A DNA stretch of 63,458 nt, filler included, from Nemertoderma westbladi (Eukaryota > Animalia > Xenacoelomorpha): assembly GCA_032718475.1 (NCBI GenBank). It is 4 parts of 4 records of this genome, joined end to end, with 100 filler letters (N's around TTAATTAATTAA, not from the genome) between each part and the next. Parts side by side here need not be neighbours in the genome. Positions count along the whole stretch, not along the records: positions 48,974 to 59,694 come from JAUCBJ010004901.1; 3 more parts are not named here. One strand, written 5' to 3'. Below are positions 12,401-63,293 of the stretch, in pieces. Below the pieces are notes generated by a model. That model was not told the origin of the DNA, searched no databases, and worked only from the letters and a program-made list of their open reading frames with translations. Both the position numbers and the translations under genes were made by a program. Numbering within the stretch: the stretch's first letter is position 1; each line of letters begins with the position of its first letter.

Positions 12401-12800
12401 CCATAATCCAAAGTATTATATATATACCAATAAATCATTCTATACACGAGTCGGTAGAGTGGCGTGTACAGTGTATGATGTCCAGCTTGCAAGAGGGGGG
12501 CCGGAAGCTATTTGTGAAAGTGTTTATTCTGTGATGGGTACGCAAAGACAAGAGGGCGGTCAGTCAAATAAAACATTGGAAAATCGCACAAAATGTGATT
12601 GGATGCTTCCTGTTCCAATTGCCTGCCCAAACACTCTGAAAGAAATTGTGACGCTATATCTAAAAAAACATAAACCCCCAGTCCTAAAAATGACTGACCC
12701 AAGAACGCAGTTGCAGCCTGGCCATGGCTGCATGGTCAAGTTATCAAACGTATACAGACGAAAACTAAATATTTATTTGATTAAATTCGTCATTGAATAG
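9481..12800 (+). pseudogene. Spliced hAT-family (KIAA1586-like) transposase, inactivated
   Basis: BED-like finger YYCLEC...HKDRHH (frameshift near 9640, stop at 9725-9727); catalytic-type motifs TVDKST, SADGAY, WDGAH, SDTRF, EAICESVYSVM; GT-AG intron 11165-11610 joins LPCWK to IVRWIP in frame; frameshift in the (TA)n run near 12420. Confidence 0.82.
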
Positions 12801-21900: not shown

Positions 21901-22096
21901 AAAAATGCTTTTTATCGAAGAAAAAAAAAGTAACTGAAACTGGACCTGCTGACCTGCCTGTGGATGTTTTTGGTGGAGAGGGAGGAGGGGGGGGGGGGGG
22001 GGGGGGGGTATTGGTATTAGCCTATACAGCTATACCTACCTTATCCTACCCTACATCCCTGAGTGTTTAAAGCTCATCTATCCCATCATAGTAGAC

Positions 22097-23257: not shown

Positions 23258-23357
23258 NNNNNNNNNNNNNNNNNNNNNNNNNNNNNNNNNNNNNNNNNNN
23301 NTTAATTAATTAANNNNNNNNNNNNNNNNNNNNNNNNNNNNNNNNNNNNNNNNNNNN
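23258..23357. other. Assembly gap with artificial linker
   Basis: 44 N + TTAATTAATTAA + 44 N. Confidence 0.97.
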
Positions 23358-27097: not shown

Positions 27098-28629
27098 ATG
27101 AAGTTATTACTTGTCGCCATTGTTGTAGCTCTTGCTTTTGGATTCGCTTCTGCCGACTCTACTCCCTTGGCAGGTAGGTTTCGGTTTGGGTACCGGTAGT
27201 CTAAAGCCTTAATGAATGATCACTAAGTGAAACCTACCAGATTCCTTTGGGGTTGTAGTTTTTGGTTGGTGTTGGACCTTACTGCACTGTAGTTAAATCG
27301 TCTTTATTATAAGTTTCTTTTTGTTTTGTAAAGATTTAAATTTCATTAAATAGGTCTACTTGTACAGTATATAAAGCCACAAAAGGGTAATGGTAGGCCT
27401 ATTGCTGGCAATACAACCTAATACTGTTTACTATGTTACCTTTATTGCAGTGCCTTTCTACCGTTACTGGGGCAACAACGACCATTTTTATACGACAAAC
27501 GTTCAGGAGATCGGCACCACGACCCCCGGACAAACTGGTAACCATGGCTACACGTCGGAGGGATACCAGGGAAGAATCTACGTGGAGCATCAGGAGTACA
27601 CAGTTCCTTTGTACAGATACTATAAGGTAGGTGGAGAAAGGGTCGTACTCCCAAGGTTGGACATTGTTATTATACATCACTCTTTCTTTAACCGCCCCCC
27701 CCCCCCCCCCCCCGGCTGCACTGACTGATTTGTTTTATGGGTGGAAATGTCTAACGCCATTTTTCTATTATGGTTCAGAATTGCACTAGCATTGCTATTA
27801 AAGTGGAGTGTTGGTTGTGGTGCCGGTTATTTCTTTACAATTACTGTACAATCTAAAATATTTAATTTATTGTTAGATTTTCATTGTGGTAGGACAGTAT
27901 AGAATCCTATACTGTACTGTATGAATGATAAATCTATATATTAAATATAATCTAAAATACAACAGAACCAACTACACGTAGCGTAGCATTCACAGCGGGG
28001 CAGTCACAGCGGATATTCCTATTTATTTATTTACTAAAAGTCCTGATAGGGGGGTGGGGTGGACATTCGACGCAATCATAAAATTTCCAGGGGAAACAAC
28101 AGCAAATAACAGCTGAATACTCTCAAAAAATATAACTAACCTGTTTGACTTTCGTTTATTGTTTTGGTTAAGTGATGTGCCACTGTAACATGCTCCTTTC
28201 CTTAAATTGAAAATCTAACATTGAGACGAGATTGGATTTACGCCCACCCTTCCAAATTAAAAAGGATCAGCCTAGAGGCTAACCACAAAACATTACGGGA
28301 AACTTGTTTTAATTGATTTATTATATTTTGCATCGTTTTTTCCTCAGGGATCCGGTACAGACCACTTCTACACTACCAACGCCGCCGAAATCGGAACCAC
28401 TACCGCGGGTAGCACTGGTAACCACGGCTACGTGAGTGAAGGCATCGCCGGTTACTGCGACGAGTTCCATGTCGAGGGTACGATCCCGCTGTACCGCTAC
28501 TGGAAGGCCTCGATCACGGATCACTTCTACACGACGGATTCGGCCGAGATCGGTACCACATCCCCGGGTACCACCGGTAAACATGGATACGTGTCTGAAG
28601 GGATTGCCTGTTTCATCCTCACCAAATAG
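27098..28629 (+). CDS. Secreted 177-aa protein with three DUF5648-like repeats (3 coding exons)
   Basis: Exons 27098-27173, 27451-27626 and 28348-28629 with GT-AG introns and compatible phases (1, 0); signal peptide MKLLLVAIVVALAFGFASA; three copies of P(L/F)YRY(W/Y)...DHFYTT...EIGTT..G.TG.HGY.SEG; stop TAG. Confidence 0.9.
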
Positions 28630-28870: not shown

Positions 28871-29362
28871 ACTACTACTAGGATCGGCATGCTGCATTGC
28901 AGCTGCATTTATAAGAATGCTGGGGGCTGGCTTGTCAAGAAAATTGCGCAGCCACAACTTATCACCCATGACATTTGCTAGATCATCCGCATCTTCAAGG
29001 CCAGTGTCCTTTAAGATGCGTCTCAAGAAGAAAGTCATGGGCTGTCCACCATGCTTATTCACTCCATGAGGCTGCCAAAGTACAAGATTATGCACTGGCT
29101 GTTCCTCACGGCGAAAGCAATGTCCTGCAAAGCGGTGGCGATTTTGTTCTAGTGTCAAGCTTGGGGGAACCAATGAGACACATCCAATATTATAGTGTCT
29201 GGTTGGAGATGTGTGCGTGCATTGTACTTGACACAATGAACCCGGCGTAGCATTCTTATGAATGTGCCATCAAGAAGATTTGGTGTCCTCATCAGTTAGA
29301 GCCCAGCATGAACACCCATAGAGGCTTGAACTACTGCTGCTCTAAATAATCGGACCTTAAGT
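28871..29362 (-). mobile_element. RTE LINE 3' fragment, degraded copy of the same family
   Basis: Reverse complement matches about 62805-63293 with indels; (TAG)n tail. Confidence 0.9.
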
Positions 29363-38105: not shown

Positions 38106-38955
38106 CTACCACCAGGATGGGGAAAATTTCAATGGCAAATTCTTATAGTGTTCGTTTAGCCTTGACTTGAATGTGTTTAGAGTCGGCGATGAAACAACAG
38201 ATTCGGTAAGACTGTTCCAATCGTCGATTACTCGATAGCTAAAGGTGTCATTACATAATACCAAACGCGCCCGAGGTTTGAATAACTTCAGAGAGTGTCC
38301 GCGACGACTGGAAGGATCCAATGTGAAGTAAGTGCGGTAGTCTGCGTTATCGAGACCGGTCAGCAGTTTATAGACTTGGATCATATCGGCGCGGTGGCGC
38401 CGGTATTCCAACGTTGGCAGACCCAACTTACGAAGGCGTGAAGGATAATCGAGATCACGGAGACCTGAGACAAGCCGCGTCGCGCGGCGTTGTACTCCTT
38501 CGATTAGTTTCGATTCGCCAATTTTTTTTGGAGACCAAACCACAGATGAATATTCAAGAATGGGACGAACCATACTCTTATATAACCCAAGAAATATATC
38601 GCCATCTATATGATTAAAGCTGCGGTATATAAGACCAAGATGGCTGTTTGCTTTCTTAACAATGTTGGCGATGTGGATGCTGAAATGTAGATTATTCTGG
38701 AAGTAAACACCAAGATCTTTTTCTGTTGTAGTTTCCGCAAGGTGATGCTGGTTGGTAATATCTCCCAGGGTGTAAGCAAACTTTGGGTTTGTCCTTCCTA
38801 TGTGCATAATTTTGCATTTGTCATTATTAAATAGCTGCTGCCACACGACACTCCATCTGTAAAGGTTGTCAAGATCGTTTTGGAGGGGCCCGCATGTTAG
38901 ATATGGGGATGGGGTAAATATGGCACTGTCCTTAGTGTCGTCTGCGAAGAGGTGT
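38106..38955 (-). mobile_element. CR1-clade LINE, 5'-truncated (RT C-terminal half)
   Basis: LFADDTK, LQNDLDNL, KCKIMHIG, EKDLGV, LYKSMVRPILEY, VQRRATR, RGHSLKL, FSYRVIDDWNSL; uninterrupted frame. Confidence 0.93.
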
Positions 38956-41098
38956 ATTATCCATGTCACAGCATTCACATTTACTTCACATAAACATTTA
39001 CTTCACTTCTTGTTTACTCGCATGGATATATTGATATAAAACACTTCAGCATAATATCTTATAGGGCCAAACGCAGATTAATAGGAATAATATGTTTAAT
39101 TATTATTACAATTGGCACATTGAAGTAAGTAGTACATGAGTTTGATAAAATAATTATGAATCTGTATCTCATTCTACTTTGTCTATATGATTATGTTATA
39201 TAATAATGTTACTTTATCACTTTGGTTTAAACCGATCTCCTTTACTATTACTTACTACTTATACTACTACTACTACTACTATTACTACTACTACTACTCA
39301 CTACTACAGAGTTATATATTATAAGAGGAGGGGGTTCGTGATTATTAGTTATTATACAAGTGCCCCTCGGCTATAGAGAGTCCACCCTCGGTTGCTTACT
39401 GGATGCACTCCCTGACGCCTGCACCATGCACACCTAGCAGGAGCAGGCCTAGTTTTATTTGGATCAGGTCTCAGGCTGTCAGGAATAATATACGGTACTG
39501 TGTACTGCTGTCTGTACTGTATTGCAGTATTCCATATTCTGGTATTGTACTGTTGTACAGTTGTAGGCCTATAAACATAGCACGTCACGTAGCAGTTCAG
39601 CAGTTATAGATAGCACATACCCGCATACCATAGTACCGTTCCGTAATACCGAGTACCGTTAGCGATAGCACCTATTTCAGTATTTAAAAGTTTGCATGTG
39701 CGCCGAAGGCCGAACTGCCGAATACATATGGCGCAGAAGAAATCGGCACAGCCCACAGCTCATCAGCTCATTCAACACACAAGTCCCTAAAACAGTAAAA
39801 GGTGCCACCCTGCTCCATAGCGCGGGAAATTCAAATGATTGAAAGACATGTAATTTGTACTGGAAAGGGTGGCAGATCAGATCTGCCACCTATATTTTGG
39901 CGGTAAATTCAAATCTGTTTTAACATTGAATACATGAATAGAGTAGAGTAAGACTAATGTAATTCTTTGAATCAGAATAAATTATTTCTTATCGGTCTGT
40001 CGGTTTAACTCACTCCTCCGTCCGTTATTGTTGTTGTTTTATCTATTCTGGGGCTTCGAGCAGCACGTGAACAACTATAAGCTGACTGGTTAACTAGTCT
40101 GGGACTTCGAGGAGCACGTGAACAATGCCCTTTAATACTTTATTAGAAGATTATCTTTATCTGTTTATTAGTACATTATTACTTTTTAGACTTTACTAGA
40201 ACTTTATTACCCTTACTTCCAGTTCCAGAGCGATGACATGAAAACTTTTCTACCTTGTAATTGGTAGGCCTATATTTTCTAGTTCCTCTAGATTTAATAC
40301 ATTTTGATGTACTTCCTTCCACACCCAACTTCCACTCATGGCTGCATGGAACTCATTGTAAGTATCGAAGTTTACCGTTTGTACTGAACATGCAATACAG
40401 CAATAGGTACCGTGATTGGCATGTACATTGTACATGATAAATTATATCGCACTGACTGCCAAATGTGTCACTACAAAGTCAACATTGTACTATTCCCTGT
40501 TTCGGTTTAAGTTGCTCATTTAGGATTACAGTTTCTGAGGTAGTGGTAGCGGGTTGTATTTTGTCACAAGTTACTAGGCCTAAAGAATAAGAATGTTCAT
40601 TCATAATAATATTTTATCATATTATACTGTATGTCATAGACAAATAGCAGTATAGGCAGAGGCATTATCCATTATGCACCTATTGTTATTACAGTAGGCC
40701 TACTGCACATGCAGTAGCATTAGCAGTAGCTACTACATTAAGGAGTTTACAGTATGAAGTCTACTGCTCTAGATCCTTGACCTTTTAGTACGTACCCACG
40801 TACATTATGCAGCACACACGGTATACAGTTTGTGATGGAAATATGATAATTCTGTAATTTGAATCAACCACCAAAAATATATAAATTCACTGCGCCTTTC
40901 TCAGTTTCTATCATCTATCTACTTGAAATCTACTATTAATATACTAGGTAGGCCTATAAGTGTATAATTGTTATAATTATAATGTTCTGATGTCAAGCAA
41001 ATAATAAATGTTCTTTACATTTTACTGGGATAGAAGTTAAGCTAAATCCCCCGACCCCCCCCCCCCCCCCCCCCCCCCCTCCTCTATTTTCAATTTTG

Positions 41099-43153: not shown

Positions 43154-45624
43154 CCCTGCAAACAATGTATTGTTAAAAAGCTGTTACTAAAATGTTATTT
43201 AATGACATAGATAACATTATTTCAAATTGTTAGATTAATGATAAAAAAACTGTAAATTGGCCAAGAAATATGACGTTATATACTAACGTTATTATTTCGT
43301 TTTTAATAACATTAAAATAACAAAGCCAGGATGGTTACATATATCATTACTTTTATGTTATTCCTTATCATTATTATTGTATTTTTAATGACATTAAAAT
43401 AACAACGGCATAATGTTATTTAGATCGTTACTGTTATGTTATTTCTTAACTTAAAAATATTGTTTGCTAAAAACGTAACATTAAATTTACGTGCAATTAA
43501 GCCCTTCTCTCATGTTTTATGGTTCGCTTGCTCTCAAACTAATAATCCCCCTCCATTGCCGTTCTTTATTATCGTTCTTTGTAATTGCCAAACCCTTTAT
43601 TGAATAATTAATTAATAATTTCCCTACGCATGTTGATATGGTAGTGGCAGGCTACAATCTCTAACACAGTTTGATTGAATACAATTTTGTTGTAGGCAAT
43701 TGTATGCAAATTAATAACAATTAAAACGTATAACATGAATTGAATATTTTGTATAATGACCAGTCAGAAACAAATAATGAAATAAGCAGCAAAATCAAAG
43801 TAAAATATCACAGAATAAGTAAACAACAAATATATGGCTGTATGGCCCAATTACGTAAATGGTTTTGATATTTCGGTTAAAGTTAATCACAGACTTAAAA
43901 AGAATATGTTTATGACGTAATAATAAGTGATAACAACATAATGAATTGCATCAATTAAAATACTTTGAGTTAATATTATTCACTAGATTTATAGATCTGA
44001 TTTGTAGTCTATATAAAATAATGTAGATAGATAGATATGTTTATTGACAATTTACATATGCGATACAAATAATATCAAATATAATACTGCACAAAACCTT
44101 TACGATAATTAGTTATTGACACAGTTATATAAATTGTCCAGTAGATTTTTGAAACTGTCTATTTTGTCTTGAGAACTTTAGCGAATACTAAAATTATTTG
44201 AACGTAATTTAACACAAAAATAACAAACAAACCGACATAATAAACCTGAATATCTAGTGAATGGTAATAACCTACGCTTAACATTACTGACTCTATATAC
44301 CTACACATTTGTTCAATATTATCCATATTACCATTGAAAAAGATACATATACATGTACATATAGTGGGTTTAATAAATAATACCTCACAACAATGTTAAA
44401 TTTATTAAAAGGAGCAGGTTACAGTTGGCTACAGAGGCACATATACAGATTTATTTCTGGGAGAGTAATCAGTACTTATTTGAATCGATATCTCCCTGGA
44501 GAGGGATGATTTTGATTGCATCGCAAATCCTCCCTATCTGAACAAATCATATTTAAAAAATTAAATGTTAATTATAATTATAATTATAGCTGAGTGAGCT
44601 TCATTTATTAAACTGTAAAAATAAATCAATAGGCCTAGGCCCTACAAAAGTACAATCTAAAAACTGAAACAATAAATAGTTTGTAATAACAGTTAATGTG
44701 AAGTTTTCAAATCGAAATCGAATCGAAAGTTTTGTAGTAATGCTGTCCCTGTGCCCTGCCCCTTCAACTGAAAACTGGGACCTCCCAATAATAAGAATTC
44801 CAATCTGTAGTCCTCGGCTGTTGAAATCCACCATCAGTACAGACAAATAAGTCAATCCTCCACCTGTCAGTGCTGGTTTAAGGGGACTTCCTGGTCCTGG
44901 CAGCCTTGAATTCTGTAATTGGTAGGTCTAATGAAGTAATGTGTGAATCCAGAGGGTAAAGGCGAACTCGCATTCAGGTAGATATGTTTTATTTATGAGT
45001 TTAGGTTAAATAAATCACAAAACCAAAACTATAAAACCAAAAATATGAGCTACTGTACACTGTACAGTGCAGTAGGCCTACAGTAACTACAATACAGCAC
45101 TACAGTAATATAAAGATAGGCCTTGCAGTACAGCAGTATAACAATACATATACGCAATAAACATTGAATACAGGCATGCCAGAATGAGTATTGTACAACA
45201 TACCATACTGTGTACTATTTTACATGTGGAAAATTCCTCCATTACCGCCAATTTTAAAATTAGCCAATCATCAATCTCAGATTAGATAATAGAAGTGACA
45301 GCAGCGTCTATCGCATAATGTTTATTTTATGTGACAAAATAACATTGTTCTGATATGTAACAAACCATGTTCTTAAAATGTTAGAACTAAACACTTATAA
45401 AACATTTTTGACTAATGTTTATGTTCTCACATTAAAATTACGTTTTTCTAACATCAACAGTTATCATTTATTTAATGTCTGACAAAGACATTATAGAGTA
45501 ATGTTAAAATAACATATATTGAACATCTAAATATTCTATCAAACAAGGGAATGACATTTATCAACATTTATAACAAATTAATGATGTTTTTCTGACATTC
45601 CTCGAAAGTAAATTGTTTGCAGGG
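43154..45624. mobile_element. EnSpm/CACTA-like (animal CCC-type) non-autonomous element
   Basis: TIR CCCTGCAAACAAT; 2-bp TSD TA; interrupts a host CTACGC(G)TAGGTG repeat; AACATT/AATGTT-rich subtermini. Confidence 0.8.
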
Positions 45625-48873: not shown

Positions 48874-48973
48874 NNNNNNNNNNNNNNNNNNNNNNNNNNN
48901 NNNNNNNNNNNNNNNNNTTAATTAATTAANNNNNNNNNNNNNNNNNNNNNNNNNNNNNNNNNNNNNNNNNNNN
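48874..48973. other. Assembly gap with artificial linker
   Basis: 44 N + TTAATTAATTAA + 44 N. Confidence 0.97.
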
Positions 48974-50037
48974 GAGGACCTTTTGGGTCAAACAATTGAG
49001 GAAGAAGGTAAAGCGGTAGTGGGGCAGTGCCAGACCTGCCGACGAGCGAAGAAGGAGCGAGCCATACAGGAGATGGCACCACTAACGGCGCGGCGAGTAG
49101 GGTAAGACAGCACGACCCGCCATTTACACATTGCGGTGTGGAAATGTTCGGGCCGATAAAGATCAAGGTGATGCGGCACACGGAGAAACGCTACGGTATT
49201 ATCTTCGTATGTAATAACACGCGGGCGGTAGGGATAGAACTCGCCCAAGATGCAACCGCATCGGCATTCATTAATGCCTTAGAGAGGTTTAGAGACCGCA
49301 AAGGTGGGACGATTGCAGTAATATACTCCGACAACGGAACCAACTTTGTGGGGGCGGAGAATGAGATGGCAGAGGCCTTGGATATCCTGGAAGGAGAGGA
49401 AGTCAGGGCAGCCATGAGGCGACGACAAGTAAAGTGGGAGAGGAGGACGCCGTATGCACCACATACCCTAGGATGCGTCGAGAGACTAGTGGGTAGTTCG
49501 AAGCGTCTGATGACGAAGTTGATGAACACCCATATGGTCCCGAAGGATGTGCTAAGGACAGTACTTGCGAAGTGTGAGGGTATCATTAATAGCAGACCGC
49601 TATATCCAGAGAATTGTGACCCTGAGTCACTAGACGTGCTGACGCCCAGCCATTTCCTAATGGAAAGACCAGCAACCATCGACATGCGGGGTGTAGACCC
49701 AGATGACATACACTCACGCCAGAGTTGGAAAGTCACTAAGGCGATAAGCGCAGAATATTGGAGAAGATGGGTTGAGGATTACCTACCCACGCTTCACAGA
49801 AGAAGTAAGTGGAGGAAGACGAACAGAGAGCTGAAAGTGGGTGATCTCGTGATGGTCACGGATGATACTATCATCAACAACCAGTGGCGGTTGGCGAGAG
49901 TTGTAGGCACTTACTCCGATGAGGACGGAAGAGTCCGATCGGTAGAAGTGCAGATAGGTGGCAAGATAGGTGCGAAAGACAGGAAAACCTACAGACGGGC
50001 TGTAGGAAAGTGTTATCTTCTAGAGGGAGCACCTTAG
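48974..50037 (+). pseudogene. BEL/Pao pol C-terminus: integrase plus DUF5641-like domain
   Basis: CQTC, EMAPL, PFTHCGVEMFGP (first catalytic D reads E), SDNGTNFVGA, ERLVGSSKR, INSRPL, LTPSHFL, WRRWVEDYL, WRLARV, DGRVRSV; frameshifts near the 5' end. Confidence 0.92.
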
Positions 50038-50179
50038 TGTAGAGTATGAAAGAAGTTTAATCGTCCAAATTTTGGACTGAGGGGGGTGGGATTGAGGGCG
50101 AGACGCCCTTCCCACACAAAAAATAAAATAAAAAATAATAAATATAAATGATAGATACGCAGTAAGTAGGCAGATAGAA

Positions 50180-50700
50180 GTTAGTTAGTTGAGTTAGATA
50201 GAGGATAGTAAGAGGGTACGTAGTACCATTAGTTAGTTGAGTTAGATAGAGGTTAGTAAGAGGGTACGTAGTACCATTAGTTAGTTAGTTAGTTGAGTTA
50301 GATAGAGGTTAGTAAGAGGGTACGTAGTACCGTTAGTTAGTTAGAGAGAGTAAGAGTTAGAGGGTACATAGTACCGTTAGTTAGAGAGAGTAAGAGTTAG
50401 AGGGTACGTAGTACCGTTAGTTAGTTAGAGAGAGTAAGAGTCAGAGGGCACGTAGTACTGTTAGTTAGTTAGAGAGAGTAAGAGTTAGAGGGTACGTAGT
50501 ACCGTTAGTTAGAGAGAGTAAGAGTTAGAGGGTACGTAGTACCGTTAGTTAGTTAGAGAGAGTAAGAGTCAGAGGGTACGTAGTACCGTTAGTTAGTTAG
50601 AGAGAGTAAGAGTTAGAGGGTACGTAGTACCATTAGTTAGAGAGAGTAAAAGTTAGAGGGTACGTAGTACCGTTAGTTAGTTAGGGAGAGTTAGAAGTTA
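50180..50700. repeat. 40-44-bp tandem repeat inside the LTR element, about 12 copies
   Basis: Unit (GTTA)2-3 GAGAGAGTAAGAGTTAGAGGGTACGTAGTACC. Confidence 0.92.
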
Positions 50701-51212
50701 GTAAGAAAGCAGTACTAGTTAGTAAGAGATACAGGTAGAGGGGTATATATAGTATAGATATTAGTCAGTAGTTAGTAGCGAGAGGGGGGCATATGAGTAT
50801 AGCTGGATAAATCGTGTAGGCCGCGCGATGCATACTGTTGTACTGCACAAGCCCACAGAGTAGGCCAGAATGTGGATTATGAAATAGAATGATCCATAGG
50901 CAATAGTAAGTAGTAGGACAGTAGAACTAAAATTAGATTGAAAATAAAATAAAAATAGGGCTGAAAAATTAACAAATTACGGTAACAGTAGAAAAGGAAA
51001 TTCTGGAACATAATTAAAGCAACGGACAAAAATTGTGATTTAGGCTACATTTAGTAGCTTCATAATTAAGTAGTGTAAAAAATAGGCAATAACTCAGAAA
51101 TTCAGAGAGAGATAGGCCATCGAACTGAAATAAACCATCTAAACCTATCACTCATCCTATAGCGCCTTGGTAAGGCACCACCCAAAGGGTGAGCGATCGG
51201 GCAAAGTTCGAG

Positions 51213-53775
51213 ATGGCAAGCAAACTCGTGCGAAAGAGAAAGGCGGAGCTAGGAGGAAAGGAGATACTGGTGGATTTCACCAAGAGGCATCCGGAAGAGA
51301 GGACGAGGGGATACTATGAGCGGTTAGAAAAGGGTCACGCAGCATGAGCGCTACAGGACCACTTCAGGGAGATGCATGAACAGCGGCTGGTCGGGACCTA
51401 CGGGACGCCGTCGCTGGACAACGCGATCTTTGAGCATTTCCACTACATGGTGAAAGGAGATGAGGCGAAGTTCGGGAGTCCGAAGTATGCGAGAGAGTCA
51501 CCGAGGAAAGATTGGAAGAGGTTCATAGAGTCCGTCAACAGGGGAGGATACATGATCCTAGACGACGAAGGGACCGTGGAAGACGAGGAGGGTTCAAGGA
51601 GAGGATCGGCGGGATTGGCCAGAACCATACTCCTACATTTGGCCGCGCCAAACGGGGACATTTTCCTATTTGACCTGGGAACGTATGGGAAGAAGGATGG
51701 GCCGAAGTTGGACCGGCTGCCGAGGGCGGTGCAGGTCCTGGTGAGAGAGAAGTCGACAACGAAAGTGGGATCGGCGATTCGCGACGACGCGGAGAGAATC
51801 ATCGGTCTGGACACCCCCAACCTCCTGGATATGCAGAAGGTCTTCATGGCTATGACAGCACCAGACGGGTTGGGACTAGTCGAGAACACAGGCCATTGCG
51901 GAGCGGTGGCGATGGGCCAGCTATTGGGGCTCGTATGTCACAAACCGATGGACTGGGGGAAGTTCAGGGAAGAGTACGGAGCAGAACTAGCGAACTCGCT
52001 GAAGTGGGGAGCGAGGCCGGGAAAACAGGAGGTGTATCAATTCCGAAGAGGAGCGATTAAGGTATATCAGAAGCGATATATCCTGCAGGAGGATTGGATA
52101 ATGATAAGTTTGCTTAACTTATTCATAACCATGGTTATCGAGAGGGAACCAGCTATTCTTATTATCGGGATCACCCCTAAGCTACAGAAGAGCCTTTAAG
52201 ATGGCTTTCGATGGTCTGGTAGACCACCCGGGGCTAAAGGGCGAGTCGGTGTACTACAACAGCCGACATCTGGTAGACTGGGAGATAGATACGCCGTATC
52301 AGAGATGGGAGCAGCTAGAGACGGATAGACGGGAGGCGAAGTGACTGGAAGAAGTTGCTAGACGGGAGAGGAGAGAAGCAGAGGAAAGGGAGGAGGAAGC
52401 TAGGGCGCAGAGCTACGGCTTCGAGGAACAGGCGGGCTTAGATGAACTTCGTTGGACTTCGTCAGTGAGTTCGGGGGAGTCTCTAGGGTGAGAACTGGGA
52501 TGGACGGTGGGATCGCCGAAACAGTCGACGTCGGGATTGCAAACGACGCCCATACCAGCGGGCGCCGAGGGGGACCAGCCGCTAAGGAAGCTAGGGGAGC
52601 TAGAGGGATGGAGAGCTACGGGCGAGAGCCAAGGCGGGAAGGGACATAGTGGGTCCATCGGGATACCGGGGTTGGAGCCACTGCCAGAGGAGGACGAAGA
52701 CGACGACGAGTTCGGAGAGATGCCGCCCATCGGGAGGATATGCCACTCGGACACGGACTGGGTTGGCGAGAGGGTGGTGACGGCCAGTGGGGCGAGGGCC
52801 TTCTGGGATAGACCCGGCAAGCGGGCCTGGGTGCACGAGGAGCCGGCGATGGATTTCGCGGGGAGCACTATCAGGTTGGGCGAACAACCGGGGACAGCAC
52901 CACGGGTAATATTCGGGGAGACGATGCACGAGAGGGGCGAGGAAATCGACGTAGACAGGGACACTAACGTCCGGAAGTTCGCTTACCAGCGACTCCACAG
53001 ACCGCGGAGATCGCTTGGGACGAAGGACGACGTGGGGAGGGAGACATTGGTACTTGGTTGCGACTACTGTGGGAGACAGACCCACCAGGAAAGGAGCTGT
53101 TTGTACCGGTTCCAGAAAGGGACTTATTGTCTCTATTACCGCGAGTCGAGCCACAGGATAGGGGCGTGTCCACGGTTGCATAACCGATGTTCGAAATGTA
53201 ACTTTCGGGGACATTACGGACGCCAGTGCGACTGGATGGACGACGAAGAGAAGTTTAGGGTCTTCGAAGAATGGGCCGACGTTGGGGCGATGACTCAGCA
53301 ACGTATGAAGGCCCAGGAGTTTCGGTGGGGCTTCTTTAACATCAATCAGGAGGCTCACATGGAGATTATCAAACGGAGGCTTCCGTTTACCTACCAGGAA
53401 GTGGCGACGGCGGCATCATATGCCGGGGTGATAAATACGCAGAGGTATTTGGACAGGTGGACGCCACAGAGTAGAGGAGAGTTTAGGGATTTCTTGGCAG
53501 AGCATGTGCCGCGGGCAATGAAGATGATCTTATGGGACGCCATCAGGGGGAGACAACAGGGCCACTCGGAAGGGCCACCCGCAAAGCGATACCGGGAGCT
53601 AATAACACCGGCACCCAAGGAGTCGACGACCGGGATCAGTAAGGAGGTGGCGGCGAGAGTCCGAAGGCAGAAAGCAGATCCCAGGGGAGCGGTAGTAACC
53701 AGGAAACAACCCAGGGAGGAGGACGGCAAAGGGAAAGACTGGAGGTGGTTCCCAAAGGCTGGTGGAACGAACTAA
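51213..53775 (+). pseudogene. Retrotransposon accessory gene: WRN/EXD-like DEDDy 3'-5' exonuclease plus three CCHC zinc knuckles
   Basis: ATG at 51213; TGA stops at 51345, 52342 and 52489 and one frameshift before about 52200 join the track ORFs 51372-52199 and 52507-53775; motifs ILDDEG, LLHLAAPNGDIFLFDL, LPRAVQVLVREKSTTKVGSAIRDD, QKRYILQED; knuckles at 53059-53229. Confidence 0.78.
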
Positions 53776-54289
53776 GACTTTGTGTAACATGCCTGGAAGG
53801 CACCACGCGAGACTCTTAAATACAAATTCAAATAATGTGAATAATCGAATAAGTGCAATTTGTATGTACGTACGTAATAATCAGTAATCTAGTGATAAAA
53901 ATATATTCGAAGTAAGTACTATAGTCATATAACCTTTCTCAATTAGCTACTGGGACTGGGGACCAATGGACTATGATACTACCACGGACGAGACATCGGA
54001 CGACATCATGCTTCTTGAGTGCGACGGCACAAAAGGGAGGGGTGAAACTCGTCGGGAGTGAGTGGTCAGAATAGGGGTTGAGTTGTAGTATGAAGAGAGT
54101 GCGGGGTATAGAGAGAGTGCGAGCGCAATTCAAGTGTGGGGGGGGGGGGAGAAGTAAGAGGCAGATTAAGGGACGAGGAAGTTCGAGAGAGTGTAAGAGT
54201 TGGGGTGAGAGTAGAGTAGAGTTGGAGTAGCGAAAGTGATTGGGGAAACAAAAGTCGTGTGGGAGGAGCGCACGATCGGCCCGACACGG

Positions 54290-54453
54290 GACGCCAGGCA
54301 AACGGGTAGCATTATCATACCCATAGGGAGCGGCCTGGAAAGCCGGCTCCGAAAGAAAAAATAGTTCCACCCCACACCCGACACTAGGTCGGGATCCAGC
54401 GGAATTGTAGCGCACTAGAGGTAGATGCTATCTTCTCACCGGGAAGATAGCAT
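54290..54453 (+). ncRNA. Putative structured cis-acting RNA element upstream of the PPT
   Basis: Series of hairpins conserved in the diverged copy at about 59371-59560 (-), with compensatory substitutions. Confidence 0.55.
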
Positions 54454-54463
54454 GGGGGGGGAG
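54454..54463 (+). promoter_or_regulatory. Polypurine tract
   Basis: GGGGGGGGAG directly before the TGT LTR start; GGAGGGAG at the same place in element 2. Confidence 0.8.
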
Positions 54464-55035
54464 TGTTAGCTTATCCAATTCCGCTAACCTACCCCATAAA
54501 GTGAGCCGTTAAGCAATATTGGGAACACGAGGTTTATTACCAATATCAACCTCGTGTCACCCCAACAAAGTGGGAATGGAGAAAACACACACACACACGC
54601 ACAATAAGTGTCAGGGGTTACACCCCTGAAAGAGGGAGAATAGCAGGGGCGAAGGGAAGCACTTCAGGGGAGGCAAAGGGTGACAACAGAGTTATTAGCC
54701 AATGGGGGGAAGGCACCGGCTGGGTAACGTAACTTGGCCAACCGTGCGATATATATTATCAGTACAGTAATCATTTCATTCACTTATAGTAAGTCAGCTT
54801 AGCTAGGGTAGTACCGGAACTTCAATTACCGTCTTACCGTCTTCGTATACCATCCGTGTATCCAATATCATATCTTATACCTTGTGTCATTATTTATGTA
54901 TCTTATACTATATCTATACTATTATACCCGGAAGACTATATACAGCGATCAATAACTCTCTTTATCTTTCACACACGGCGGGGACGCGTAGATTGAAAAC
55001 CGGATAAACCGGGATCCTTCATAGATCCCGTCACA
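54464..55035 (+). repeat. 3' LTR (572 bp)
   Basis: TGT...ACA ends; follows the PPT; terminal GATCCCGTCACA is identical to the end of LTR 2. Confidence 0.8.
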
Positions 55036-55169
55036 ATAAACTTTAAGCAAGGTGTTATCGGCAAACATCCTGCTATCTGTAAAGCAGAATATACACTGAA
55101 CAAAGAAATGTCGCAATGCAGCTTAAAACTTGCTTAGTATCGAATGAAAATAATTCTTAAAACGGAGGG

Positions 55170-55397
55170 TGGGGGGAAACTGGACGCAATAAAAATTCAT
55201 CCCTCTCCAGGGGAAAATTAGACGCAAATATCAGTTGATTACTCTCAAAAATAAAACTGTAATCTGTTCTATTGTATTTAGTTTATTGTTTTGGGTAAAA
55301 TAACGTGCCACTGTAACCTGCTCCTTTCCCTAAATTGAGAATTTAACATTGAGGCGGGATATTAATTCGCTAAGACGGTATTTGCGTCCAGTTCCCC
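55170..55397. mobile_element. Small dispersed MITE-like repeat
   Basis: Imperfect inverted ends GGGGAA(A)CTGGACGCAA; a diverged copy lies in the host gene intron at about 28050-28250. Confidence 0.55.
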
Positions 55398-56121
55398 GCC
55401 CCCCCCCCCCCCCCCCCCTGTCTCCCATTACGTACCTTCCCTCTCTCGGCGTAGCCAATTCGTTACATCGCTACTCATACTTAACATACTGAACTGGAAG
55501 ATACTGTAGGACAACGAATGTTCTCTTTGTTCTGAATGTCTCATTCTCTTTGATTGAGCAGCTGCTACTGTACAGTACTGTGCATACAGCAGTTAACTAT
55601 TAATTGTTGGAACTCCCTTGTTGCCTGTTGGTTTAAAGTAATTTTTACTAACAATGACCGTTTAGAAACCCTTACATGTAACTTCATTGAAAGAATAAAC
55701 TTATAACTTCAAAAGACAATTGGTTGCTTTTAATTGCAACATCTAAAGAATTGAGTTTGTTTGAAGATCAAAAAAAAATTTATTTAACAGCATTCTAGAC
55801 AGCAACGCAATTGGGGCTAATACAGAGCAAAGTAACAATGAATAGACAATGCAGAACAGCAATAATCAAGACTTAAGGCACTACCTGTTTAACTGTATAT
55901 GATGTATACTGTAGAAGTTATCAATCGACTAGGTTGCGGTTGGTGAGGTATGGAAAACAGGAGTGCTGAACATACCATTATTGGATGTTTGTAACCGGAA
56001 GCAACCAAAAGAGGGAAACTCATCAATTTGTACTAAAAATCAAATAAAGCCTCAAGTCAACAAGTCAAGTCAAATGAGCGCATATATTTTTTCCACCACT
56101 GCTTAGCAAAACAATATTAAC

Positions 56122-58265
56122 GCATAGCATTATAGCACATTACATTAATAACTGTATACCATAGCATCATAGCACGTTACAATAATATCTGTATAGCATA
56201 GCATTATAGCACGTTACATTAATAACTGTATGTATAGCATAGCATCATAGCATGTTACAATAATAACTGTATAGCATAGCATTATAGCACGTTACATTAA
56301 TAACTGTATAGCATAGCATCATAGCACGTTACATTAATAATTGTATAGCATAGCATTATAGCACGTTACATTAATAACTGTATGTATAGCATAGCATCAT
56401 AGCATGTTACAATAATAACTGTATACTGTAGCATAGCATTATAGCACGTTACAATAATAACTGTATACTGTAGCATAGCATAATAGCACGTTACATTAAT
56501 AACTGTATAGCATAGCATTATAGCACGTTACAATAATAACTGTATATCATAGCATCATAGCACGTTACAATAATAACAAACTGTATACTGTAGCATAGCA
56601 TTATATCATGTTACAATAATAAATGTATACTGTAGCATAGCATAATAGCACGTTACATTAATAACTGTATAGCATAGCATTATAGCACGTTACATTATTA
56701 ACTGTATAGCATAGTATTATAGCACGTTACAATAATAACTGTATAGCATAGCATTATAGCACGTTACAATAATAACTGTATACTGTAGCATAGCATTATA
56801 GCACGTTACATTAATAACTGTATAGCATAGCATTATAGCACGTTACAATAATAACTGTATACTGTAGCATAGCATAATAGCACGTTACATTTATAACTGT
56901 ATAGCATAGCATTATAGCACGTTACAATAATAACTGTATATCATAGCATCATAGCACGTTACAATAATAACAAACTGTATACTGTAGCATAGCATTATAG
57001 CACGTTACAATAATAAATGTATACTGTAGCATAGCATAATAGCACGTTACATTAATAACTGTATAGCATAGCATTATAGCACGTTACATTATTAACTGTA
57101 TAGCATAGTATTATAGCACGTTACAATAATAACTGTATAGCATAGCATTATAGCACGTTACAATAATAACTGTATACTGCAGCATAGCATTATAGCACGT
57201 TACATTAACTGTATAGCATAGCATTATAGCACGTTACAATAATAACTGTATACTGTAGCATAGCATAATAGCACGTTACATTAATAACTGTATAGCATAG
57301 CATTATAGCACGTTACAATAATAACTGTATATCATAGCATCATAGCACGTTACAATAATAACTGTATACTGTAGCATAGCATTATAGCACGTTGCAATAA
57401 TAAATGTATACTGTAGCATAGCATAATAGCACGTTACATTAATAACTGTATAGCAAAGCATTATAGCACGTTACATTATTAACTGTATAGCATAGTATTA
57501 TAGCACGTTACAATAATAACTGTATACTGTAGCATAGCATTATAGCACGTTACAATAATAACTGTATTGTGTAGCATCATAGCATGTTACAATAATAACT
57601 ATATAGCATAGCATTATAGCACGTTACAATAATAACTGTATAGCATAGCATTATAGCACGTTACAATAATAACTGTATACTGTAGCATAGCATTATAGCA
57701 CGTTACAATAATAACTGTATACTGTAGCATAGCATAATAGCACGTTACATTAATAACTGTATAGCATAGCATTATAGCACGTTACAATAATAACTGTATA
57801 TCATAGCATCATAGCACGTTACAATAATAACTGTATACTGTAGCATAGTATTATAGCACGTTACAATAATAAATGTATACTGTAGCATAGCATAATAGCA
57901 CGTTACATTAATAACTGTATAGCATAGCATTATAGCACGTTACATTATTAACTGTATAGCATAGTATTATAGCACGTTACAATAATAACTGTATACTGTA
58001 GCATAGTATTATAGCACGTTACATTAATAACTGTATAGCATAGTATTATAGCACGTTACAATAATAACTGTATAGCATAGCATTATAGCACGTTACATTA
58101 ATAACTGTATACTGTAGCATAGCATTATAGCACGTTACAATAATAAATGTATACTGTAGCATAGCATAATAGCACGTTACATTAATAACTGTATAGCATA
58201 GCATTATAGCACGTTACAATAATAACTGTATACTGTAGCATAGCATTATAGCACGTTACATTAAT
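56122..58265. repeat. 37/42-bp satellite, about 55 copies, with higher-order structure
   Basis: Unit GCATAGCATTATAGCACGTTACA(A/T)TAATAACTGTATA, with a variant carrying an extra CTGTA. Confidence 0.95.
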
Positions 58266-58729
58266 ACATCTGAACATCCACAAAGAACTTAGTTGTACCA
58301 ATAAACTACAGTATAGTGGAGTCAGTCTCCTTATGGTTGAAGCCAAATTACAATAGTACAATACTAATAATAGTACTGTAGTACTCTAGTAACCCGTTTA
58401 GTGACCCGTATACACCAATCAATTCGATTCGATATAGAATTATACCTCGAATATAGAGAAACTACTGAGTAAGGGAGCGATTTTGCCGTTCTGACCTTCG
58501 TGAAGTTTAAGAATGCATTCTACTCCAATGTTGTTAAATTTGCCAAACGAGATAACATCAGATCTAAATAAGCTAGTGCGGCGTATAACCCAAACATAGG
58601 GAGCATGAAATATATCGGCTTACTAGAATTAGGCTGGTTATGTATCATTCGATTGATTGATTTTTGCTATATAATTCCTAACAATTATGTTCACTTACAG
58701 GGAGACAGGGGGGGGGGGGGGGGGGGGGG

Positions 58730-59694
58730 TGTGACGGGATCAAGGAGTTGGCAGTATAGATCCCGACCGGTGTGTTATACGCGTCGCCGCTTCCGTGGGC
58801 TGCTGAGCTGTCTACTGGATATGTGTGGTAGGCTGAAGGCCGTTCCAAATAACTGAGTTTAGTTGTCAGTGTTAATAATCACAGTAAACGATAATAGCAC
58901 AGTCTGAATATAATAGCATGCAATACAACGGTTAGTAACGACGGTCAAAACTGTTCCGGTCTCACAACTGTAAGGAACCAACTGAACTAGTAATCAATAA
59001 CCACAACGGTTATAATATCATTGACACATATTAAATTGCCTCTGCGCTACTGAGTGGCCTGAATATCCAATAGATGCGCTCTAATCACCCCCAATGTGCT
59101 TTCCCGGACACCATTGGCTTAGCCTGATTAATTGTCACCTCGCCACTCCCTGTTGCCATTATCCCTCGTGCTAGCCTTACTAGCTTGTTTGTCCCTCTGA
59201 GGTGGTTTGACCTCTCAACTCTCTCTGTGGCTTATGGCGTGTATCGCCTTAGTTGGTTGTGAGGTGACATTATAATTTGTAATGTCACCTCGCCAACTAT
59301 AATTGGTAAAATGCCACTAATACCATTTTCGGTGGGTAGTGCAGGGAATTGAATCCGCTTACACTCCCTCCATGCTATCTTCCCGGTGAGAAGATAGCCT
59401 CAACCTTGAGTGCGCTTCAATTCCGCTGGAATCCAATCTAATATTGGATGTGGGGTGGAAATTTCTTCTCGGGGTTGGCTTTCCAGGCCGGCCCCCATGA
59501 GTCTGTTATCATTATACCCATCCTTGGTACATCTGCGAGCTATGCTGTACCAAGGCATCTGGCGTCTCTGTTTTAGATGATCACCCTCACTCCTCACACA
59601 GTTTTCCTCTCGGACTTTGTTGTCCCTTCCTCTCTCGCCAGTCCATTGGGACTCATCCCCCTCTATGCTCGCTCCCCATACTTGAATCTCACTT
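58730..59694 (-). mobile_element. Second, related LTR retrotransposon 3' end (3' UTR, PPT, LTR 58730-59363)
   Basis: Minus strand reads ...GAAGATAGCATGGAGGGAG TGTAAGC...GATCCCGTCACA; 3' UTR homologous to about 54120-54463; the rest is lost in the gap. Confidence 0.82.
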
Positions 59695-59794
59695 NNNNNN
59701 NNNNNNNNNNNNNNNNNNNNNNNNNNNNNNNNNNNNNNTTAATTAATTAANNNNNNNNNNNNNNNNNNNNNNNNNNNNNNNNNNNNNNNNNNNN
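59695..59794. other. Assembly gap with artificial linker
   Basis: 44 N + TTAATTAATTAA + 44 N. Confidence 0.97.
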
Positions 59795-60066
59795 AGGTTT
59801 CAGAGTATTTTAGCGTATGGGGGAAAAACTGGGTTGCGGGGCGAAGGGCCAGTTACATCCCACAGAAGCTTTTACAAGTATCGAGCTTTTTACGTCATGA
59901 AATTGCAGATTATGTCCTCTAAAGTACAAATACAGTTCAAATACAGAAGAAATGACTTTTATGTCCTCTAAAACACCAGTACAGCAAGGACACGGCCTTT
60001 TTATGCCTGGCAAACCAACTACAGAGTACTTTAAGGGAAAATAACCGGTTAATGACGCAAAAGCTT

Positions 60067-61335
60067 TTACAAGTCCCTCGAAATATCATAATATTCCTGG
60101 TCTGCTCCATCGTTAGATTGATCCAGGTTGGCTGTGGTGCGGTAGGTGGCGTCCGGGAGGTCTGTACCGCGGGTGGCGCTGTCCGGGTTCGCTGTGGCAT
60201 GGTGGGTGGCGTCCGGGAAGTCCGCACCCCGTGTGGCGCAGTCCGGGTTCGCTGTGGTGTGATGGGTGGCGTCCGGGAGATCCGTACCACGGGAGGCGTG
60301 GTCCGGGTTCGCTGTGGTGCGGTGGGTGGCGTCCGAGAGGTCCGTACCATGGGTAGCGCGATCCGGGTTCGCCGTCATGCAGTGGGTGGCGTCCTGGAGG
60401 TCCGCACCACTTGTGGCGCGGTCCGGGCTCGCTGTGGTGTGGTGGGTAGCATCCAGGAGGTCTGTACCGCGGGTGACGCAATCAGGGTTCGCTGTGGCGC
60501 AGTGGGTAGCGTCCGGGAGGTCTGCACTGCGGGTGGCGCGGTCCGAGTTCACTGTGGCGTGATGGGTCGCGTCCGGGAGGTCCGCACCGCGGGTGGCGCG
60601 GTCTGCGTTCGCTGTGGCGCAGTGGGTGGCATCCGGGAGTTCAGCACCACGGGTGGTGCAGTCCGGGTTCGCTGTGGCACGGTGGGTGGTGTCCGGGTAG
60701 TCCGCACCGCGGGTGGCGCGGTTGGTGGCGTCAGGGATTTCCACACCGCGGGTGGCGCAGTCTGGGTTCGCTGTGGCGCGGTGGGTGGTGTCCGGGAGGT
60801 CCGCATTGTCAGTGGCGCGGTCCAGGTTCACTGTGGTGCGGCGCTTGGCCCCACTGGTGTTAGCGCTATCTGAGGTGGAGAGCAGTTTGGAGAAATGAGT
60901 TCTCCATCGTTCTAGGGATATTGGGCAACTAGATTGGTGCGCTGAACTGGTTTGTGTCCACTTGTAAGGGTGTTCCTCTGCGTCCCGTATGACCCGTTCC
61001 TCTTGTTTTGATCTGTAAGCTTCCAGTTTATCAGTTAGGAGTTTCTTGTATTCTCCTTTAGTTGTATGTAACACATGTCGTAACTGGGGATCCAGTTTAG
61101 AAGCGTGAGCAAAATATATTACTTTCTTCCGTTGGTTGAAGCAGTCCTTGTCGAACCAGGGTCGTGCTTTCCTATTAAAGTACGGTTTGTCGATTGCGGC
61201 GTCCTGGATCATGTCAGAGATAGTCGTGTATGCTGAGTCCACATCGTTGGCAGCGAGGTACGTTTCTGTTACTTGGATTCGCGGGTCGATTTTCAGTTGC
61301 TCGAGATTTAGCTTGCGTGTCTTTGTGGAGTGCAT
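60067..61335 (-). CDS. LINE ORF2 linker region fused in frame to a 20-aa repeat (no endonuclease, no RT)
   Basis: ARPWFDKDC...YKKLL...WRTHFSKLL is the typical segment between APE and RT; it is followed by (TANPDRATRGADLPDATHRT)n. Confidence 0.5.
   Translation of the reverse strand: MHSTKTRKLNLEQLKIDPRIQVTETYLAANDVDSAYTTISDMIQDAAIDKPYFNRKARPWFDKDCFNQRKKVIYFAHASKLDPQLRHVLHTTKGEYKKLLTDKLEAYRSKQEERVIRDAEEHPYKWTQTSSAHQSSCPISLERWRTHFSKLLSTSDSANTSGAKRRTTVNLDRATDNADLPDTTHRATANPDCATRGVEIPDATNRATRGADYPDTTHRATANPDCTTRGAELPDATHCATANADRATRGADLPDATHHATVNSDRATRSADLPDATHCATANPDCVTRGTDLLDATHHTTASPDRATSGADLQDATHCMTANPDRATHGTDLSDATHRTTANPDHASRGTDLPDATHHTTANPDCATRGADFPDATHHATANPDSATRGTDLPDATYRTTANLDQSNDGADQEYYDISRDL
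60120..60845. repeat. GC-rich 60-bp tandem repeat, about 12 copies
   Basis: Unit GTCCGGGTTCGCTGTGGYGCGGTGGGTGGCGTCCGGGAGGTCCGCACCGCGGGTGGCGCG; variants are mostly CpG transitions. Confidence 0.93.
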
Positions 61336-61449
61336 TGTGGTGTATTTTCTAGAGGTTCGGTTTCAGATACATGTGGTAGCATCTATTCCATTGTCGCCCC
61401 TGGACGATGGTTGATAGTAGTGGTGGCGGGGTTTCAAGTTAAGCACCGA

Positions 61450-62190
61450 TCATTCCGAGTCAGACAGTCTGTAGTTGCATATGACAACTCCTTCTTCCCA
61501 GTTGTCGGGATCCATTAAGCGTAGGTGGTCTTCATGGCTGCAAATTAGATGGAATGATTGCGTACTACTGATGAGCTGGTCGGGGTTTGTGTGCAGTGAC
61601 GCCGGTATAGAAATGATATCGTTGAACAGTAGGGATTCACGTTGCAGATAAGCCTTGATATCATCCGCTGCGACAGTTTCCGCAAAGCAACCAATATAAA
61701 TATGGGCGACCTGAGGTTGCGGGGATACCACCGGAGCTGGTGAGACTCCCAGACCGCTGCCGGATCTCCTGCCTACAACGTTTGGTCGCGGGCGGAGGAG
61801 GCGGGATCTATATGGTGCCGGGTCTGTCTCTACCGACTGACCAGTGGCCATTGTTTTAGACGGTACAACAGTAGTGGTCGTTTTTGGCGGGATCGTAGCA
61901 CTAGAATAGTCATTGTTGTGGAGTGGGAGTTGAGTTAGGCGGGTGGCCATTGATGGGAAGCTTGTCTGACGCTTTAATAGTTGATTGTGCGCCTCAATCA
62001 TCTCGCGTTGTGACTCCGACAATCTGCCGAGTGCAACAGAGTATAGAGAAACCATTTTCAGCAAGTTATCGGTTATGAGGCGTTCCTGGTCGTTGTTTAG
62101 GTTCTTCTTTTGTTTGACAGACCGCAAGACGTTAATTATTTCATCATTTAAATTGGTGAAGGCTTCTGCCATAATTATGTATTGATACAA
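61450..62190 (-). CDS. LINE ORF1-like protein (coiled coil plus RRM-like C-terminus)
   Basis: Intact 246-aa frame; HIYIGCFAETVAADDIKAYL...SFHL...LMDPDNWEEGVVI matches the CR1/L2/RTE-X ORF1 pattern; lies just upstream of the ORF2 remnant. Confidence 0.68.
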   Translation of the reverse strand: MYQYIIMAEAFTNLNDEIINVLRSVKQKKNLNNDQERLITDNLLKMVSLYSVALGRLSESQREMIEAHNQLLKRQTSFPSMATRLTQLPLHNNDYSSATIPPKTTTTVVPSKTMATGQSVETDPAPYRSRLLRPRPNVVGRRSGSGLGVSPAPVVSPQPQVAHIYIGCFAETVAADDIKAYLQRESLLFNDIISIPASLHTNPDQLISSTQSFHLICSHEDHLRLMDPDNWEEGVVICNYRLSDSE

Positions 62191-62314
62191 TTAATATAAT
62201 ATTCCAACAGGCAGACAGGTCAGTTTAGAGATCAGATAGTCAGATAGCTGTCATCCGCCAGCTAGGCTACAGAGGAATTATATCATTGGCCCTACAGTTA
62301 ATCAATAATGACAG

Positions 62315-63293
62315 GTCCTCCAAGGAGACACACTTGCACCATTCTTGTTCATTATTGTGGTTGACTATGTTCTACGCATGTCCTTAGATCATCATAATGA
62401 TGATGGGGTGATGATAACTCCACCTACTGGCTCCAGAAGTCGAGGAAATCCTGCCAAGTACCTAACTGATCTAGACTTTGCTGATGACTTAGGAGTACTC
62501 TCAGAATCATTAGAGGGAGCCCAACGGCTCCTCAGCTCATTAGAACATGCTGCTTCTAGTGTTGGTCTTTTTATTAACTCCAGAAAGACCAAAATTCTGA
62601 CAGTTAACTTTGAAAGTCCTCAGCAAGTCTCTGATCGGATGAGCATAAGCTCAAAGGATGGTATGCTTGAGCATGTGGACGACTTCTGTTACCTGGGATC
62701 ATGGATCCGGAAGTCAGGTGAGGACCTTCGAATACGTAAGGGAAAGGCATGGGCAGCCTTGAATAGGCTGTCCAGGATTTGGAAGTCACCGAGAATTAAT
62801 CGGAAACTTAAGGTCCGATTATTTAGAGCAGCAGTAGTTCCAGTACTCCTCTACGGGAGTCCATGCTGGGCTCTAACTGCTGAGGACACCAAATCTCTGG
62901 ATGGCACATTCACAAGAATGCTACGCCGGGTTCATTGTGTCAAGTACAATGCACATATCTCGAACCAGACACTATATAACATTGGAGGTGTCTCATTGGT
63001 TCCCCCAAGCTTGACACTAGAACAAAATCGCCTCCGCTTTGCAGGACATTGCTTTCGCCGTGAGGACCAGCCAGTGCATAATCTTGTACTTTGGCAGCCT
63101 CATGGAGTGAATAAGCATGGTGGACAGCCCATGACTTTCTTGAGACGCATCTTAAAGGACACTGGCCTTAAAGATGTGGATGATCTAGCAAATGTCATGG
63201 GTGATAGGGAGTTGTGGCGGTGCAATTTTGTTGACAAGCCGGCACAGCATTCCTAAAAATGCAGCTGCAATGCAGCATGCCGATCCTAGTAGT
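62315..63293 (+). mobile_element. RTE LINE, 5'-truncated copy with intact 3' end
   Basis: Only about 9 substitutions versus 22568-23257 over ~690 bp; ORF runs to 63256; short 3' UTR and TAGTAG tail. Confidence 0.93.

Follow-up and report, generated by a model that had tools for sequence, protein, structure and literature searches.

A highly repeated retrotransposon family of Nemertoderma westbladi carries a third open reading frame (ORF3) that is a real gene of the family and under purifying selection, and that is broken in the copy described here. The element is of BEL/Pao type, as judged on its integrase, polypurine tract (PPT) and long terminal repeat (LTR). In the reading that we favour with moderate confidence, ORF3 would encode an accessory DEDDy-type exonuclease with zinc knuckles that trims RNA 3' ends, like the mitochondrial RNase D of Trypanosoma brucei (TbRND).

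Layout of the element and of ORF3

The window, that is, the whole stretch of 63,458 nucleotides that was analysed (from assembly GCA_032718475.1), consists of four contig pieces joined by N spacers. The spacers at 23258-23357, 48874-48973 and 59695-59794 are identical (N44-TTAATTAATTAA-N44), and pieces across them are not true neighbours. The piece in question is 48974-59694 (JAUCBJ010004901.1). As the contig starts inside the integrase, gag, the reverse transcriptase (RT) and the 5' LTR are out of view, and the window shows only the 3' half of the element. From 5' to 3', the integrase stop (50037) is followed by a purine-rich spacer, ORF3, 680 non-coding bases, the PPT and the LTR (Table 1).

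The integrase matched the Pfam families DUF5641 (E 2.2e-23), which is reported in the BEL/Pao element roo, and rve (E 1.8e-4). Its motifs agree with those of BEL/Pao family integrases in PMC3118150 supplement 6; NSRPL was found 585 times in the BEL/Pao domain file of that paper, and the two integrases compared share the other motifs. The lengths of the PPT and LTR fall within the sizes given for BEL/Pao elements (PPT about 10 nt, 3' LTR 0.2-1.2 kb; PMC8742986), and the assignment in the preliminary description agrees with all of these features. No match to the integrase was found among metagenome contigs. Two frame changes near the contig start break the integrase and, since it is broken along with ORF3, this copy is dead. 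The boundaries of the LTR and PPT could be fixed because a sister family on the same piece shares the pre-LTR stretch and the last LTR bases. In the sister family, the 170-bp stretch at the PPT is conserved and the LTR ends in the same 11 bases, while the rest of the LTR has diverged; the contig end cuts this family off ahead of any ORF.

ORF3 amounts to about 850 codons between the integrase stop and the PPT, in the env slot, and runs from an ATG at 51213 to a stop at 53773-53775, split over two frames. In-frame TGA stops lie at 51345, 52342 and 52489, and the frame changes within 52129-52199, where both frames are open. The frames and breaks are those of the sense frame first rebuilt across three TGA codons and one frameshift, and each motif quoted from it is present (D-x-E at 51561/51567, KVG..I.DD at 51762-51788 and QKRYILQED at 52068-52094).

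In BEL/Pao elements such as roo, the third ORF is described as env-like (PMC8742986, PMC13524379), and the ICTV profile of Belpaoviridae gives gag, pol and env only (PMC8742986). The element here shares with roo-type BEL/Pao elements the integrase type, a PPT of about 10 nt, the LTR size and the third-ORF slot, whereas its third ORF has no convincing membrane segment and is for that reason not taken as env. The maximal 19-residue hydropathy is 0.49 in the stop-free C-terminal part and reaches 1.64 where the first frame ends, beside the frameshift; the N-terminus is charged, and the signal peptide and membrane anchor of env-like ORF3s were not found. Within 500 bases 5' of the ATG, a pyrimidine-rich AG occurs just once, at 51138-51162, and is a candidate splice acceptor for ORF3.

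Table 1 Features of the element and of the sister family, in positions of the window.
Feature	Position	Strand	Basis
Integrase end of pol, judged BEL/Pao type	48974..50037	+	Pfam DUF5641 and rve; motifs as in BEL/Pao integrases; three-frame reading
Tandem array of a 44-bp unit (11.7 copies), in the purine-rich spacer that separates pol from ORF3	50184..50701	+	
ORF3 first frame: N-terminal arm and putative DEDDy-like exonuclease domain (core about 51500-52139)	51213..52199	+	
ExoI-like D-x-E	51561..51569	+	Glocal alignment (combined profile) and MAFFT; weak as a lone block
ExoII-like KVG..I..D, Asp at 51786	51762..51788	+	Best block on both profiles
ExoIII-like helix Q-x2-Y-x3-E-D-W: Tyr 52077, Glu 52089 (Asp column), Asp 52092	52068..52097	+	
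ORF3 second frame: charged helix, Gly/Pro-rich and acidic spacer; TGA 52342, 52489	52195..53058	+	
Three zinc knuckles C-x2-C-x4-H-x4-C, spacers 9 and 6	53059..53229	+	
ORF3 C-terminal domain (no family match) and basic tail to the stop	53230..53775	+	
PPT, 10 nt	54454..54463	+	Sequence
3' LTR, 572 bp, TG...CA	54464..55035	+	Last 11 bases and scattered blocks in common with the sister LTR
Sister family 3' end: pre-LTR stretch, PPT, 634-bp LTR	58730..59694	-	170 bp at 80% with 54313-54482

Probable fold and putative active site of the N-terminal half

Searches with the N-terminal half found no match in Pfam, NCBIfam, PHROGs or PDB sequences, no homolog in a set of 5.8 billion sequences, longer and near lengths included, and none among metagenome, viral and genome contigs. 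The sole match in a set of 1.84 billion was a 14-fold repeat protein, which is a repeat artefact. A tblastn match to a plasmid (E 0.07) was rejected as chance; it falls in a 585-residue ORF without exonuclease motifs, by eye presumably a glycoside-hydrolase-like protein. For the C-terminal half, searches including the 5.8-billion set and Pfam likewise found no relative, and its C-terminal domain is without a match. The preliminary description had expected Pfam matches to DNA_pol_A_exo1 or WRN_exo and to zf-CCHC; Pfam gave no exonuclease match, and zf-CCHC_4 came up only at E 0.67.

Because every blind search was empty, targeted DEDDy profiles were built from up to 112 bacterial and phage domains (53 WRN-like, 39 NrnC, 10 RNase D and 10 Pol I), and the stop-free N-terminal half was scored against them with filters off. 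The first combined profile gave 5.6 bits, which none of 1000 shuffles equalled, and one of 1000 did so for the WRN-like profile. Small single-family profiles were poor, with 295 and 271 of 1000 shuffles as good for RNase D and Pol I and no score for NrnC. All four larger and more diverse profiles gave local HMM scores of 8.7-11.7 bits (0 of 5000 shuffles); the score climbed from 5.6 to 11.7 bits on addition of diverse WRN-like sequences, and the last set gave 9.1. In a scan of 25,000 families, the best local P values (5e-6 to 6e-5) would lose their significance. Whole-domain alignment gave z 5.85 and 5.56 (0 of 250 shuffles), with the reversed sequence at background.

Among ungapped blocks, ExoII and ExoIII were each placed best at the expected site and in the correct order, the former equalled by 0 of 400 shuffles on both profiles and the latter by 6 and 11 of 400. 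Strands 2-3 were weak (34 and 191 of 400), and the ExoI position was not the best site for its block. Glocal alignment to the combined profile put D-x-E and the ExoII Asp in register and ExoIII at an earlier Tyr without an acid, while MAFFT reproduced, with insertions, the register noted before. An invariant-column test was weak (8 of 15 columns, which 9 of 200 shuffles reach), and hhalign passed one of four modes and gave a probability of 6%. The WRN-like group and ORF3 share the pattern KVG..I..D and Q..Y...[D].W, with no significant sequence match.

An unguided structure model had a pLDDT of 32, and the fold search from it was uninformative. The model guided by a DEDDy alignment reached pLDDT 72.7 and pTM 0.74, values biased by that alignment and without a control, and its matches to DEDDy structures (Z up to 13.7) are expected by construction. 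Giant-virus and phage exonucleases retrieved with it from a viral library were discounted as a consequence of the guiding alignment. TbRND had the highest query TM (0.60) among the Foldseek rows listed for the guided model, and its Z of 13.1 (rmsd 3.3, 176 aligned, 17-20% identity) placed it among the tied best rows. The domains of Egalitarian, EXD1, EXD2, WRN and Nibbler/mut-7 belong to the same fold group and were tied structural matches. Among the largely tied rows with Z >12, TbRND (176) and Egalitarian (177) aligned over the most residues; both rank low by sequence to the guiding alignment (TbRND only 36th-37th of 48), so that their match is less expected. On the targeted profile test and the alignment-guided model, the N-terminal half probably has an exonuclease fold of the WRN/EXD/RNase D type.

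As in DEDDy enzymes, ORF3 has an ExoI D-x-E (51561, 51567), an ExoII Asp (51786) and a targeted-profile match with ordered motifs. The catalytic acids read D, E, D and then Glu in the ExoIII column, where reference enzymes have Asp, with an Asp one residue later. Because ExoIII in this copy is Y-x3-E-D instead of Y-x3-D, the domain is termed DEDDy-like and not strictly DEDDy. Of the DEDDy exonuclease that had been proposed, the fold thus stands as likely by the targeted profiles, whereas the site is D-E-D-E and blind searches gave no match.

It is slightly more likely than not, we infer, that the protein cuts, with Glu as its fourth acid. That Glu argues against cutting; in TbRND, loss of the matching fourth-column Asp nearly abolishes activity (PMC7797062). 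The main rival, which we consider somewhat unlikely, is that the same fold serves without cutting, as an RNA adaptor like Egalitarian or EXD1 that would bind element RNA and steer it, for instance towards the germ line or assembly sites, or would protect it against silencing factors. The Glu and the large insertions would suit such an adaptor, and the structural matches to Egalitarian (Z 12.2, 177 aligned) and EXD1 (Z 12.7) are level with the best. PDB entries are titled as Egalitarian in complex with RNA of the I-factor retrotransposon, and EXD1 and Maelstrom are named inactive DEDD derivatives in PMC5408684. Nevertheless, ORF3 retains three canonical acids as well as the Tyr, and its fourth column is still acidic; a site long dead would have no need of this. 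Rotifer ORF3s also alter the motif (DEED) yet are read as possibly active (PMC5408684).

It is quite improbable that the N-terminal half is not DnaQ-like at all and that ORF3 is an orphan nucleic-acid-binding protein with coincidental motifs, its knuckles perhaps taken from a gag nucleocapsid. This reading would fit the negative blind searches, the failed unguided fold and the weakness of several targeted tests (single-family profiles, hhalign, invariant columns). Three knuckles are also carried by BEL gag and LINE ORF1 proteins. Coincidence would, however, have to account for the whole-domain z of 5.6-5.9, for ExoII and ExoIII blocks that are ordered and at their expected sites, and for a score that grew with diverse WRN-like sequences.

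Zinc knuckles, proposed function and known systems

A charged and acidic spacer of about 300 residues without family match separates the nuclease half from the knuckles. The knuckles lie at 53059-53100, 53128-53169 and 53188-53229; two are canonical CCHC motifs and the middle one is degenerate (second Cys replaced by Tyr), all as first described, after the spacer. The TbRND knuckle array was one of three weak PDB matches of the C-terminal half (E 0.91), which alone is not significant, and no TbRND match was obtained with the nuclease half among PDB sequences.

TbRND is a DEDD exonuclease (PDB 7c42, 7c4c) with four knuckles; these bind U-rich RNA and increase both the binding and the cleavage of RNA, and the authors call the combination of exonuclease and knuckles very unusual (PMC7797062). 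In TbRND, as in the predicted ORF3 protein, a CCHC knuckle array with a first spacer of 9 residues comes after the exonuclease domain. TbRND differs in its linker of 28 residues, four intact knuckles and Asp as fourth acid, against the about tenfold longer spacer, three knuckles (one degenerate) and Glu of ORF3; it is also a cellular single gene, whereas ORF3 is transposon-borne and has an extra C-terminal domain. ORF3 lacks the TbRND set of four intact knuckles with Phe or His directly after each, the residues just after its three being Leu, Pro and Asp, and it has no high sequence similarity to TbRND. The likeness thus recalls a common layout, not a demonstrated common descent.

In the favoured reading of an RNA-trimming exonuclease, the protein would be made from a separate message, spliced or internally promoted; such a message is proposed because ORF3 lies well away from pol and starts with an ATG of its own. 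The knuckles are predicted to hold single-stranded RNA, the 3' end of which the nuclease domain would trim, and trimming would benefit the element. As a tentative guess, the target may be silencing RNAs of the host, or tails that are added to the RNA of the element and destabilise it, whereby the element would escape control. The fullest version is distinctly unlikely: that this BEL/Pao lineage evolved its own active TbRND-like D-E-D-E enzyme, destroying or trimming silencing RNAs or uridine tails, as a counter-defence independent of the rotifer and gypsy cases that aided high copy number. If true, ORF3 would be a counter-defence nuclease encoded by a transposon, in which zinc knuckles feed an unusual D-E-D-E site.

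The preliminary description had suggested proofreading or trimming of RT intermediates. It is very improbable that ORF3 edits DNA in this way inside the particle. The domains of WRN, EXD2 and Pol I, among the structural matches, do act on DNA, and CCHC knuckles bind nucleic acid in particles. However, ORF3 is separate, 1.2 kb downstream of pol and not fused to RT, the copies are diverged (many <95% alike), no packaging signal has been shown, and RNA is the substrate of the only enzyme solved with exonuclease and knuckles together (PMC7797062).

DEDDy ORF3s have been published for the bdelloid rotifer LTR retrotransposons Juno1/2 and Vesta2/5 and for Terminons, where their activity is untested (PMC5408684); this is the rotifer precedent given in the preliminary description. 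The nematode precedent given with it was not found in the literature searched, and the DEDD passages in one review concern rotifers and transposases. The rotifer ORF3s resemble ORF3 here in being non-envelope third ORFs 3' of pol with an RNase D-like exonuclease and an altered acidic motif, which is DEED there and D-E-D-E here; the knuckle fusion is not described for them in the parts of PMC5408684 covered. Rotifer env and GDSL ORF3s that were tested had neutral within-genome variation, according to PMC5408684, whereas here the synonymous bias is strong and the family highly repeated. The rotifer host elements have GPY/F-type integrases, in contrast to the BEL/Pao type here.

No nuclease ORF3 in BEL/Pao was found in the literature searched, which lay outside Repbase, GyDB and subscription journals. 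The GPY/F-type integrases of the rotifer elements are Ty3/gypsy-like. Nuclease ORF3s are already known in other retrotransposon groups; this one is set apart by its BEL/Pao element, for which the literature searched gave no case, and by its TbRND-like layout, its altered site and the lack of a detectable relative. With a nuclease-plus-knuckle ORF3 under selection, what was seen in rotifers would hold for a second family of LTR elements, suggesting that such elements repeatedly recruit 3'-end RNA enzymes. With no detectable relative among 1.84 billion representatives, it would, if confirmed, be a new branch of the fold.

ORF3 among copies of the family and neighbouring sequences

Parts of the stretch are present in five DNA runs, all of one organism and drawn from three studies. 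Contigs cover all 30 bins of 48974-55400 in three of four runs. In run X1, summed depth, which is not copy number, was 40,000-73,000 for the integrase, 12,000-61,000 for ORF3 and 38-46 for flank contigs, integrase and ORF3 being of the same order and about 1000x the flank contigs.

Differences between copies were scored in the best-supported 40 of 897 and 40 of 220, which gave 38 distinct sites in ORF3; two of these, at the breaks, were excluded. Of the remaining 36, 25 are synonymous in the ORF3 frame, against an expected share of 0.29 (p 8e-7), and 7 and 6 are so in the other two frames at the same sites. The share was 14/19 in the N-terminal half and 11/17 in the C-terminal half, and 5/9 in the integrase as control. 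Because the lists are a best-supported subset, the signal is read as purifying selection and not as dN/dS. Of the 11 length differences listed in 51100-52420, nine precede the ATG and two fall at the frameshift. At the first stop, 94-100% of the summed depth reads otherwise in all four runs, so most copies are without it. Other copies also repeat the 44-bp array, in varying unit number.

The plus-strand purine share is 0.61-0.64 through the integrase, spacer, ORF3 and 3' stretch, and 0.49-0.53 in the LTR, flank and five other ORFs. At fourfold sites, A+G is 0.65 in the integrase and 0.79 and 0.71 in ORF3, with comparison values of 0.47-0.50. CpG content and strand purine bias are uniform from the integrase to the PPT and differ in the flank and the other ORFs. 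ORF3 is contiguous with the element and, as the preliminary description held, belongs to it, given this uniformity and the repetition of all bins. That ORF3 stems from an element other than that of the integrase, by chance juxtaposition or nested insertion, is highly improbable: no single contig joins the two, cover dips at 50909-51230, the 5' LTR is unseen and an imperfect direct repeat flanks ORF3 (51164-51181, 53791-53806), yet that repeat is at chance level (101/1000 shuffles), strand bias and CpG content are uniform, every bin is repeated and no RT or tail of a second element lies between ORF3 and the PPT. The direct repeat was accordingly rejected as an insertion mark.

A joint of 51230 to 52366, which skips 1135 bases corresponding to the whole putative nuclease domain, is present in three of four runs from two studies at a depth of 420-720. 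This deletion sub-family retains the ORF start and the knuckle half. Its existence counts against the favoured reading and fits a domain that a copy can do without, or that other copies provide in trans. An abundant family with natural copies lacking the nuclease domain would offer a built-in comparison for the question whether transposons use an enzyme of their own against RNA tailing or silencing by small RNAs.

In runs X1 and X3, flank contigs of low depth start at 55036, directly after the LTR, and in the X1 flank contig the 17 letters ahead of 55036 do not fit the LTR. A possible empty site at 55036 would mean that this insertion may be polymorphic.

Elsewhere in the window, long open frames at 9728-11209, 11611-12534 and 38106-39002 (minus strand), of 493, 307 and 298 codons, had no Pfam match at E up to 1. 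The stretch 59800-62200 (minus strand) has, by eye, a LINE-like layout, with a 246-codon ORF and then a 431-codon frame in which a 60-bp tandem repeat encodes a 20-residue unit; it gave no significant Pfam match. Non-LTR RT fragments (RVT_1 and DUF6451) lie at 21953-23257, 62312-63256 and 28874-29275, of which the first two share at least 300 identical bases and the third is inverted. Between the two LTRs, a 37-bp satellite of about 55 copies occupies 56122-58266, and a short, very abundant repeat at 55164-55360 recurs at 28049-28232, 3968-4159 and 44444-44522.
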